Under the pieces are notes generated by a model that made no database searches, was not told the DNA's origin, and saw only the letters and a list, made by a program, of their open reading frames with translations. A program made the position numbers and the translations under genes. A stretch of 64,000 nt of DNA from positions 64,418,001 to 64,482,000 of the forward strand of contig OX597821.1 of assembly GCA_951406725.2 (NCBI GenBank), given 5' to 3'. Positions 258 through 54,212 of this stretch are shown here, one piece after another. Position 1 is the stretch's first letter; every line of letters begins with the position of its first letter. Origin of the DNA: Octopus vulgaris (Eukaryota).

Positions 258-716
258 ATAATAGAAATATTAAAATTACTAAGTCTCTTTAAAGGAGATT
301 ACGGCAGCGTTACTGGGTATTAATAGTTATCGCCACACTAATATGGCAGTCTATAAATAAGACTAAAGCTGTCGCTGATTAGCTCCAAGAGGCCATCGCC
401 TCTAGCTAGCTATTTGATACACGAACCTGCGTCCATTACAACCTTCGAACAGGGGAGGTCAGCCGCTTCACCTTGCTCGTCAGACATCTGCAGACATGTT
501 TCAGGGTTGTTGCCCTTTATCAATGCAACGTAGCCAGAACCAGCAGGTGTCGCTACTGCCGTCTGTTCGAAGATTTTATTTACCTAGTTACAGTGGAATA
601 CATCCACTTGTTTTCAATAATAGAACTATTAAAATTACTAAGTCTCTCTAAAGGAGATTACGGCAGCGTTACTGGGTATTAATAGTTATCGCCATACTAA
701 TATAGCAGTCTATAAA
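258..716 (-). mobile_element. Non-autonomous retrozyme/pLTR-like element with ~100-bp terminal direct repeats (258-357, 617-716; period 359)
   Basis: Near-identical direct repeats ATAATAGAA...GCAGTCTATAAA, flanked by (TA)n, non-coding, with an internal hammerhead motif on the minus strand. Confidence 0.65.
489..527 (-). ncRNA. Type I hammerhead ribozyme, U3:A8 core variant
   Basis: Minus strand reads TGCA-TTGATAA-AGGG(CAACAA)CCCT-GAAAC-AT-GTC-TGCA. Stem I, stem II, palindromic stem III and the GUC triplet are all present. Confidence 0.7.
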
Positions 717-782
717 CATATATATATGTGTGTATGTATATATGTATGTATGTATGTATGTATGTATCTGCGTGTATGCTGA

Positions 783-1116
783 GACCCCCTTCGGTCATGA
801 CTCACCATGGGATTACACCTAGAAAGTTATCCTCCCAGACACAAGGCCGGACAAGGTTATCTATGGAAGACCAGCAGTCGCCCATGCATACCGGCTTCCC
901 CTCTCCACGTCACCAGTGTTATCCAAATGAAAAGCAAAGACTGATACAGCTTGGCACCTGTGACGTCGCAACTCATTTCTACAGCTGAGGGAAGTGGAGC
1001 AACGTGAAATAAAGTGTCTTACACAAGAACACAACACGCAGCCCGGTCCGGGATTCGAACTCACAACCTCACGATCGTAAGCTCGACGTTCTAACCACTG
1101 AGCCATGCGCCTTCAC
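783..1116 (-). mobile_element. tRNA-derived SINE (family C)
   Basis: Minus-strand head GGCGCATGGCTCAGTGGTTAG (A box) and GTTCGAATCC (B box), then the conserved TGTGTTCTTG...ACACTTTATTTCACGTTGCTCC body. Confidence 0.8.
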
Positions 1117-1985
1117 ATGTGTGTTTATATACATATACATACATACATGCATACATACATACATACATACATACATGCATACATATGCATGTGCTTCTTT
1201 TAGTTTCTACCTACCAACTCCACTCACAAGGCTTTGGTCGACTCTAAGCTATACTACAAGACACTTGGCAATGAACCCAATAGCATGATCTACTTGGCGT
1301 TGTAAAGCTGAGACGTGCTGTGAGACTGTTCGACCATTTTATGTGGTGAAACATTCTCTATACTCAGTCCCTATTCCATATCGCCTGACCGACTTCCTTA
1401 TGAGACTTTACACACACACGCATGCACATATATGTATGTATGTAAGTATGTATATAAACATGTATGTATATAAACAGGTATGTATTTAAACAGACATGTA
1501 TATAAACAGGTATGTATTTAAACAGACATGTATATAAACAGGTGTATATAAAAATGTATATATTTTGCAGCTGTTTTCGATACAAGGAACCATGCACCCA
1601 GTGTGGAGTGGCAATTCGATGCCATATAGTTTATTTCATCATTGCTGCCGGACCTTAGTAATACCATTAGTTATAAAAATATCGATTTCAAACACCTGGT
1701 TATTAGTAATGCTATGGCTAAACGGAAGCATAATATTCATAGGTGTCGAGATCATAATGATATCCGTTTCGCTGCTGATGATGAATATATATGTTTGATG
1801 TCCTTTTGCGAATCTTTCATATCTTATTTTCTCGTCATACTTGGTCCTCCTTCATTCTGATTGGGTTGAATTTATCATGGTTGTGTTATTTGTTTTTTTT
1901 TCATGCACGCGTTGATATTGCGTGACTGTCATACCCAGGGAATTCTCTTATAGCTAAAGTATCATTTATTAAACATTTTTGTAGT

Positions 1986-2400
1986 TTACTCTTTTACTTT
2001 TTTACTCATTTACTTGTTTCAGTAATTTGACTGTGGCCATGCTGGAGCACCGCCTTTAGTCGAGCAAATCCACCCCAGGACTTATTCTTTGTAAGCCTAG
2101 TACTTATTCTGTCCGTCTCTTTTGCCAAACCGCTAAGTTACGGTGATGTAAACACAGGAGCATCAGTTGTCAAGTGATGTTGAGGGGACAAACACAGACA
2201 CACAAATATATACACACACATACATATATTTACACATATATACGACGGGCTTCTTTCAATTTCTGTCTACCAAATCCACTCACAAGGCTTTGGTCGGCCC
2301 GAAGCTATAGTAGAAGACACTTACCCAAGGTGCCACGCAGTGGGACTGAACCCGGAACCATGTGGCTGGTAAGCAAGCTACTTACCACACAGCCACTCCT
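1986..2400 (-). mobile_element. tRNA-derived CORE-like SINE (family A, internal microsatellite, (AAAAGAGT)n tail)
   Basis: Matches many copies in this window; contains GGCACCTTGGG.AAGTGTCTTCTACTATAGC. Confidence 0.85.
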
Positions 2401-52593: not shown

Positions 52594-52798
52594 AACTAAT
52601 CCCTCGACCATCGCGGGTGTTACGTTCCAAAACCTCCCAGAGAAATAATTAAAATTAAAAATATATAAATGCCTATCAGCCGCTGAAACCCGCCATATAC
52701 CGAGGTATCCGCAATATAAATTCACATATATTAGCCAGAAAAACGCAGTATATAGTGAGTGAGCGATAGGTGTACCGCGATATGGTGAGGGATTAATG
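52594..52798. mobile_element. Pogo/Tigger-like MITE, shorter copy
   Basis: TAATCCCTCGACCATCGCGGG...CCGCGATATGGTGAGGGATTA; homologous to 16798-17252. Confidence 0.8.
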
Positions 52799-53794
52799 TA
52801 TATCTATATATATTTGATGTTTCTGTTTATAGACGCATTTCTTCGCACAAAATCCTGTGTTTGTGATGGGCTGTACAACATGTAGTAAAGCGATTCTGAC
52901 CGCATTATACAATACATATGCATTCATGTAATATGATGCAAATTATTTCGTGATGTAAATTGTATTTTGACTGGAACCACGTCGATATGGAAATAATTCC
53001 ATGTGGATTTTTACTCAAGTGAATTTAGTCGCTATTCGATCTATTCTGATTACTTTCTTCTAATGTTCAACATTAGAAACCAGCAAGAAATGAATGTTTT
53101 CATCAAGAAAAGATTCTATCAATAGTTTGTTTAAAGTTAACATGTCTAAAGTTACTGGTAAATACAACTTGGATAATTAATGACTGGTTAATTGCTAATG
53201 TAAAAGTCATCCAATTAGTGACAATAACAAAATTGTATTTAAAACAGAGGAGAACGAAAAACAATTAAAATTAAACACATGCAAGTCAGTCTGACGTTCG
53301 TTAATCGCATGTTAAGACCAAAACTAAACGAAACAAATGTAGCATTGAATAATTCACGAACATCTGCAACTTCCTGTATACATACATACATACATACATA
53401 TATATATATATATACATATATATATATATACATATATATATATATATACATATATATATATATACATATATATATATATATATATATATATATATATATA
53501 TATATTATATTGTTATCAAAAAAGGGGGTCGAATTAATTAATTGTTAATAAATTCGACCAAGCAGTATTCGGTATGTAAAGACCATTTACGGTATATTTG
53601 AAGTATTAATTTATAAAAATATGGTAAAGTAAAAGAATTCACTTTACCACACACCGAACTTTTCAGAAATAGCAGCCAAAAATTTGGCTATTTCTTCAAC
53701 TGCAAATAAAAGTCTCCAGACAATGCATACTCAGAAAAATAACACACATAGGTATAAGGGAAAAACAATGAAAGATCACATCCATATACGATAC

Positions 53795-53853
53795 CCGAGG
53801 ACAGTCTGTTTCTGGATTTGTGGGTAAACGCCACTTTTCCTTCATCAGCTCAG
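53795..53853 (-). ncRNA. Type I hammerhead ribozyme (canonical core)
   Basis: Reverse-complement copy of 54153-54212. Confidence 0.75.
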
Positions 53854-54152
53854 AGATTTCTTCTGATTTAGATTTGAAAAAACTAAGAATCAAACATACC
53901 CGTCCGATATCTGTAACATCGGACAAACCATGCCAGACACCCAGTACTAGCGAATCCAAAAATACGAATGAGATCTATTATTCTCCCTGTCCACCCACGT
54001 GAGTCATAGAGCATTACATTTCTACAGAGGTATCTCATTCGTATTTTTGGATTCGCTAGTACTGGGTGTCTGGCATGGTTTGTCCGATGTTACAGATATC
54101 GCACGGGTATGTTTGATTCTTAGTATTTTCAAATCTAAATCAGAAGAAATCT

Positions 54153-54212
54153 CTGAGCTGATGAAGGAAAAGTGGCGTTTTACCCACAAATCCAGAAACA
54201 GACTGTCCTCGG
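54153..54212 (+). ncRNA. Type I hammerhead ribozyme (canonical core)
   Basis: CTGAG-CTGATGA-AGGA..GTGG..CCAC..TCCA-GAAAC-AGACT-GTC-CTCGG. Stem I is CTGAG/CTCGG, with a GUC triplet. Confidence 0.75.

Follow-up and report, generated by a model that had tools for sequence, protein, structure and literature searches.

Minimal hammerhead ribozymes of Octopus vulgaris with alternative Watson-Crick pairs at core positions 3 and 8, among them a G3-C8 family of a Penelope-like element

A 64,000-nucleotide stretch of the Octopus vulgaris genome (GCA_951406725.2, contig OX597821.1, positions 64,418,001 to 64,482,000 of the forward strand; hereafter the window) contains copies of the minimal type I hammerhead ribozyme, some of which depart from the canonical core CUGANGA at both position 3 and position 8. 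Published accounts place these two positions in a pair within the active hammerhead core. A preliminary description of the window had reported UUGANAA and GUGAACA cores beside canonical ones, and had taken the joint change of positions 3 and 8 as a sign of selection for catalysis. The locus raises the question of whether such cores are private mutations of individual copies or the normal state of whole families and, if the latter, what has kept the pair.

The states of the two positions were followed across the assembly (2.8 Gb, 227 contigs) by exact-pattern genome searches in which positions 3, 7, and 8 were left free, and were tallied manually over the first 100 matches listed for each of three families: A and B, which account for the UUGANAA cores, and G, which accounts for GUGAACA. 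Family A was U3-A8 in 98 of the 100 matches listed (of 194; the others were one U·G and one C·A), and family B in 96 of 100 (of 843; two C·A, one U·G, and one G·A). Family G was G3-C8 in 93 of 100 (of 2,960), with 7 single mismatches and no match to the reversed-pattern control. C3-G8 was absent from the 100 matches listed for each family, and the consensi do not revert to CUGANGA, the outcome by which the preliminary description would have been refuted. A 17-base pattern of the G3-C8 core has 6,956 exact matches genome-wide, against 1 for its control. Family G consists of two subfamilies with different loop II and the same core and stems, and the three families have distinct stem III palindromes (AAUAUU in G, ACAUGU in A, and ACCGGU in B). 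In contigs from runs of four organism labels, no other letter reached 3% or more at position 3 or 8, where depth was lower than elsewhere. Each non-canonical core is the normal state of its family and not a private mutation, and families A, B, and G are each fixed for one Watson-Crick 3:8 pair.

Pairing at 3:8 was also measured in two blind samples of the genome. In the first (120 stretches of 10 kb at round coordinates, with 8 shuffles), 25 of 29 descriptor matches were Watson-Crick at 3:8 vs. 18 of 47 in the shuffles. The second (140 stretches, 1.4 Mb, positions 3 and 8 free, score cut-off 9, with 40 shuffles) yielded 26 matches, of which 25 were Watson-Crick (15 C-G, 5 G-C, and 5 U-A; the remaining one was U·G), whereas its shuffles gave a mean of 1.75 matches and Watson-Crick pairs in 13 of 70. 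A search confined to CUGANGA does miss families, as had been foreseen, since this core is absent from 11 of the 26 motifs; roughly extrapolated from 1.4 Mb, the genome would hold some 50,000 such motifs, about 40% of them (some 20,000) without CUGANGA. Because copies are not independent, the 161 descriptor matches from all DNA examined were grouped into 31 clusters. The majority state was C-G in 20, U-A in 7, G-C in 1, and other in 3, the three non-paired clusters being singletons (C·C, C·A, and U·G). U3-A8 was seen repeatedly in clusters without shared sequence; G3-C8 was confined to one family, with no second such family among the 31 clusters. These data support the conclusion that, across families, 3:8 stays Watson-Crick far above chance. 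At least five further U3-A8 clusters have no sequence relationship with family A or family B (L169, L150, L190, L171, L032, L044, L254).

The window itself (36% G+C, rich in microsatellites) was scanned with a type I hammerhead descriptor in which positions 3 and 8 were free, with 100 shuffles as control. Four complete type I folds were found: UUGAUAA at 523 (minus), CUGAAGA at 14458 (plus), and CUGAUGA at 54158 (plus) and 53848 (minus). The shuffles gave a mean of 0.46 and a maximum of 4 at the loosest setting, and a mean of 0.2 and a maximum of 2 when a stem I of at least 4 bp was required. The hammerheads and the elements that hold them are as follows (PLE, Penelope-like element):

258-720 (minus): family A insertion within a (TA)n microsatellite. 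It spans 1.28 copies of a tandem unit of 362 bp, and its segments 258-357 and 617-716 are repeats of each other, 96% identical.
488-528 (minus): intact family A minimal type I hammerhead, U3-A8, UUGAUAA, with U3 at 523, a 4-bp stem II, a palindromic A-CAUG-U stem III, and C17 at 493.
14454-14539 (plus): canonical C3-G8 hammerhead CUGAAGA of an older repeat family, with a long stem II loop and a palindromic CGAUCG stem III.
32945-34714 (minus): Helitron-like non-autonomous composite carrying a family G end, with 5' TC and a 3' hairpin plus CTAG, between A and T.
33528-33786 (unstranded): inverted pair of family G 3' ends, a 91% palindrome; the left arm is without G3-A6 of the core.
33658-33708 (plus): damaged family G hammerhead GUGAACA, with G3 at 33665, an extra G after A9, and U17.
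47240-47275 (plus): decayed U3-A8 hammerhead of a diverged subfamily of family B, with A9>G and a stem II mismatch.
47616-47649 (minus): family B U3-A8 hammerhead UUGAAAA, with U3 at 47647, a palindromic CCGG stem III, and a 2-bp stem I.
47953-47986 (plus): decayed family B U3-A8 hammerhead, with GCAA in place of GAAA; it forms an inverted pair with the 47647 copy (86% across 176 bp).
53601-54408 (unstranded): inverted repeat of a PLE-like end, 92.5% over 828 bp, with two canonical hammerheads.
53794-53854 (minus): canonical C3-G8 hammerhead CUGAUGA, with C3 at 53848.
54152-54213 (plus): canonical C3-G8 hammerhead CUGAUGA, with C3 at 54158.

The descriptor thus recovered the canonical folds that the preliminary description had placed at 14454, 53795, and 54153. 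A core of the form N3-UGA-N-N8-A, GAAA, and U16.1-H17 arranged around three helices are present at 523, 14458, 53848, and 54158 and in intact family G copies, and this arrangement is incomplete at 33665, 47243, and 47955. These three, together with 47647, are the other sites that had been noted; all four fail the descriptor, and three are decayed copies. For instance, the GUGAACA copy at 33665 has C11.1>G at 33691 and A15.1>U (GAAA>GAAU) at 33695, and has lost the closing pair of stem II. The copy at 47243 reads UUGAAAG rather than UUGANAA, and GCAA replaces GAAA at 47955; at 47647 (minus) the core is intact and stem I has just 2 bp. The earlier account was therefore right about the U3-A8 state of two families and the G3-C8 state of a third, whereas it overlooked that the copies at 47243 and 47955 are decayed and that the one at 33659-33707 is damaged and Helitron-borne. 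Rfam returned no hammerhead among the 150 matches listed (of 363) for the window, and none at E<=10 for positions 420-620, which hold the family A copy, or for an intact G3-C8 copy. Since the window also holds canonical-core copies that are unmatched in the Rfam rows listed, minimal hammerheads in general escape the Rfam models.

Family G forms the 3' end of a young PLE that encodes a reverse transcriptase (RT) and a GIY-YIG endonuclease. In the four loci measured (L273, L274, L275, and L278), the distance from the end of the open reading frame (ORF) to the downstream, sense-oriented hammerhead is 971-1,001 bp. One of these (L275) has an open stretch of 671 residues in which RT-type motifs can be read by eye; its last 117 residues match Pfam GIY-YIG at 25.3 bits (cut-off 22.6), and its nearest Atlas clusters are of the RVT_1 / HTH_animal / GIY-YIG type (score 0.97). 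A Pfam search with the entire family G ORF returned no match at E<=0.01, a PDB sequence search gave weak unrelated matches only, and the AlphaFold model predicted for the endonuclease region from a single sequence, with a predicted local distance difference test score (pLDDT) of 48, was left unused. The presence of a Cys-rich linker is suggestive of the Neptune/Nematis type in the definition of PMC8557442. Between the ORF of L278 and those of three other copies, the proportion of synonymous differences (pS) is 0.075-0.082 and that of nonsynonymous differences (pN) 0.0215; among the three closest copies the counts are small, and L273 vs. L275 is near neutral. Family G copies are 5'-truncated and often inverted head-to-head (pairs in L273-L278), and have (TA)n ends and two alternative 3' ends. 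Most genomic copies contain the whole uncut hammerhead, often starting about 20 nt 5' of the core, which indicates that uncleaved RNA was the template.

The G3-C8 copy in the window has a different history. Helitrons start with 5' TC, end with a 3' hairpin and CTAG, and insert between A and T, and by these rules the 1.77-kb composite at 32945-34714 shows Helitron-type ends. A 1.28-kb part of it is about 96-98% identical at 10 other loci, where the remainder is matched too. The broken closing pair of stem II is common to 134 matches, most of them with the loop of the composite, and the same context surrounds 6 of 30 intact-pattern loci (the first 30 among the matches listed), so part of the family G count represents spread at the DNA level. 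The copy in the window would thus be a dead passenger, amplified as DNA inside a Helitron-like element. The composite holds a captured inverted PLE end, and some of its copies are in tandem, about 1.95 kb apart (L002/L003).

The carriers of the U3-A8 families are less alike. Family B hammerheads lie in sense behind a GIY-YIG fragment (L081, L086, and L089; 24.0 bits), and the evidence for a PLE in this family is the GIY-YIG fragment only. Family A is apparently a retrozyme-like, non-autonomous element: its unit is non-coding and 362 bp long, matches exceed this length in 25 of the 31 stretches (the query locus among them), its 3' ends cluster at +208 and +267, and no RT/GIY-YIG ORF was found for it. 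The PLE and retrozyme affinities assigned to these minimal hammerheads beforehand are in agreement with the carriers of G, B, and A. A PLE ORF fragment beside family A (L033/L280) was considered as the parent and rejected, as it is antisense to A and has a C3-G8 hammerhead of its own behind it. At the same loci a family A unit stands head-to-head with a 5'-truncated PLE of another family, which suggests template switching. Elsewhere (L279, G000:C2:52932001-52939000), two family A units are 3,910 bp apart, with fragments of a zinc-knuckle, ORF1-like frame between them that has no match in Pfam. The window also contains a 336-bp repeat in two inverted copies, 88% alike (39972-40307 and 61180-61515), and an open stretch at 51502-51890 (plus) that, judged by eye, looks like the C-terminal end of a non-LTR (long terminal repeat) retrotransposon ORF2.

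Older relatives of family G bear on the origin of its core. The family G context with a base other than G at 3 and other than C at 8 has 118 matches; among 10 examined, 7 represent older families that share the stems and U17 of G and have other loops and flanks, and 3 are decayed G. One older relative (L301) has C3-G8 on family G stems, about 360 bp 3' of an endonuclease fragment that is 38-53% identical to the family G ORF. Given this G-like endonuclease, the hammerhead scaffolds of L301 and family G are likely homologous, and C3-G8 is likely the ancestral state. A wider pattern, again with a base other than G at 3 and other than C at 8, has 238 matches, and a hand count of the first 100 listed gave U·G in 37, C-G in 19, C·A in 17, U-A in 14, and other states in 13; about 7 of these 100 are decayed family G. 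By loop type, one subfamily of relatives is mostly C-G, one mostly U·G, and one mixed U-A/C·A. Changes in stem II seem matched within each older subfamily, and CpG decay could feed them. A pattern with G3 and a base other than A at 15.2 has 74 matches, 5 of them on the old scaffold, and none of those 5 is G3-C8. Among the matches to the wider pattern and at L301-L306, L308, and L312 there are older PLE-like subfamilies on one scaffold with a majority of U3·G8 or mixed U3-A8/C3·A8, and a non-palindromic GGAC loop with which a dimer could make tandem G·A pairs.

From these observations a mechanism can be proposed. G3-C8 would have arisen once in a master element, from a C3-G8 ancestor by two transversions, and would have been retained since the active fold requires the 3:8 tertiary pair. 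A dimer of the RNA, joined at the palindromic stem III, would be cut after U17, and this cleavage would trim read-through or tandem transcripts. New copies would be inserted into (TA)n by target-primed reverse transcription, with loss of 5' sequence and inversion along the way, and would afterwards be free to decay. Accordingly worded, the reading is that G3-C8 has probably been kept in the master lineage since it preserves a weakly active, dimer-dependent hammerhead, and that the young family G, with about 7,000 copies, likely still self-cleaves its element RNA weakly. According to PMC4209133, minimal PLE hammerheads are slow and presumably work as dimers, and the computed double-hammerhead fold comes to within 4-5 kcal/mol of the minimum for the dimer in G and to within 2 in A. 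According to the mutant data of PMC11167929, C3G/G8C partly restores PLE hammerhead activity that is lost in the single mutants, and the deep-mutagenesis results of PMC9901934 include strong positive epistasis for the G:C swap. PMC3884650 mentions, as data not shown, a lower activity of G3-C8 when position 17 is C than when it is G. It may be, as a guess, that U17 in the G lineage mitigates this loss of activity; several U3-A8 families carry A17, able to pair with U3, which only partly fits the idea that U17 permits G3.

A number of points weigh against retention of the pair for cleavage. The Fisher probability of 1.5e-12 for pairing overstates the case, since copies are non-independent; G3-C8, being in one family, is one event; and the window's G3-C8 copy, having spread as DNA, is uninformative on selection for cleavage. 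The weightiest is that older elements on the same scaffold hold U·G and C·A, so positions 3 and 8 have not always moved together: the coupling claimed beforehand stands across families and is often broken in these relatives, and the covariation of an 11-sequence alignment (chosen by pattern) does not clearly exceed that of shuffles, 25 of 500 of which attain its score. Family G also has an all-A-U stem III and a UUU cleavage triplet, both weak features, and its monomer fold extends stem I with a G3·U17 pair; the dimer fold of family B, with a stem I of 2-3 bp, is unstable. In the experiments described in PMC11167929, PLE insertion in vitro is unaffected by hammerhead mutants and RNA sequencing ends at the PLE cut site were not seen, and in the account of PMC8557442 Naiad PLEs thrive without canonical hammerheads. 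The step from pairing to selection for catalysis was thus overstated in the preliminary description, although the pair is indeed kept across families.

A rival reading is that the hammerhead is a largely dispensable relic, in which 3 and 8 drifted in master elements and G3-C8 was a chance paired state amplified by an active protein. The frequency of U·G and C·A in same-scaffold subfamilies, the single G3-C8 family among 31 clusters, and insertion without cleavage (PMC11167929, as above) all suit such drift, and the broken-stem-II copy, which reached 134 matches through its Helitron-like carrier, illustrates that copy number is not evidence of function. Drift is nevertheless an unlikely explanation, since two G subfamilies that differ in loop II have both retained U4, G5, A6, A9, GAAA, and U16.1 as well as stems I and II and the palindrome of stem III. 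The fold is also kept across the older relatives (in the 11-sequence alignment, 86% of cells are paired vs. 22-48% when slid), and a non-paired majority occurs only in three singleton clusters. Alternatively, the fold could serve as a protein-binding site or as a promoter or translation element in the pseudo-LTR, with 3:8 pairing selected and cleavage slow or irrelevant. Most copies hold the whole hammerhead, as expected of uncleaved template RNA, and the discussion in PMC4209133 allows other roles for metazoan minimal hammerheads, which are weak in vitro. This role is quite improbable given that G12, A13, A14, A15.1-U16.1, and a non-G at 17, which belong to the cleavage core, are kept in the families examined, an argument that is partly circular in that the search patterns fixed these residues. 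Retention for weak, dimer-dependent cleavage is the reading preferred here.

The closest known systems are the minimal hammerhead ribozymes (min-HHR) of metazoan PLE pseudo-LTRs (Cervera and de la Pena 2014, PMC4209133), which, like those found here, are type I with a short palindromic stem III, G10.1-C11.1, and one additional nucleotide between A9 and 10.1; they too form many consensus families in each genome, U3-A8 families among them, and occur in opposite-strand pairs separated by 100-700 bp. The Fig. S3 alignment rows examined in that paper hold C3-G8, two U3-A8, and one U3·G8, with no cephalopod listed, and G3-C8 is absent from these rows and from the passages of the main text examined; about 1,300 U3-A8 matches are given there for Schistosoma mansoni. 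The first natural 3:8 covariation was U3-A8 (Perreault et al. 2011, PMC3088659), and the core-variation section of that paper treats only U3-A8, without mention of G3-C8. The engineered C3G/G8C mutants of the PAc PLE (PMC11167929) and of PMC9901934 carry the same swap as family G, but as laboratory mutants, whereas in family G it is the wild-type state in thousands of copies. Family A shares with the animal non-LTR retrozymes, as described in the parts of PMC7229834 and bioRxiv 10.64898/2026.07.22.740005 that concern them, a non-coding tandem unit of 150-450 bp and a type I hammerhead; it differs in its U3-A8 minimal core and in its short partial tandems with inversions, and is known here from DNA alone. 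No report of a natural G3-C8 hammerhead was found in a literature search that missed most subscription papers and supplements, and the passages on G3-C8 in PMC3884650, PMC11167929, and PMC9901934 concern engineered molecules. Of the overlooked repertoire proposed earlier, the G3-C8 family appears to be new, while the U3-A8 part was already in print.

The 3:8 pair has been proved by laboratory swaps, and its inversion to G-C needs two transversions via inactive intermediates. Family G is a candidate, put forward tentatively, for the first natural G3-C8 hammerhead, two transversions away in an active retroelement of about 7,000 copies, whose lineage would have sampled C-G, U·G, U-A, C·A, and G-C. 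It follows for practice that G3-C8 should be permitted in hammerhead descriptors. If the proposed history is true, the 3:8 states on the same stems would be a natural record of a ribozyme crossing a fitness valley, a passage that a U17 already in place may have assisted by weakening the inhibitory G3-N17 pair. Family G and its same-scaffold relatives make testable both selection for cleavage in PLE hammerheads and the passage of a ribozyme core through non-pairing states.

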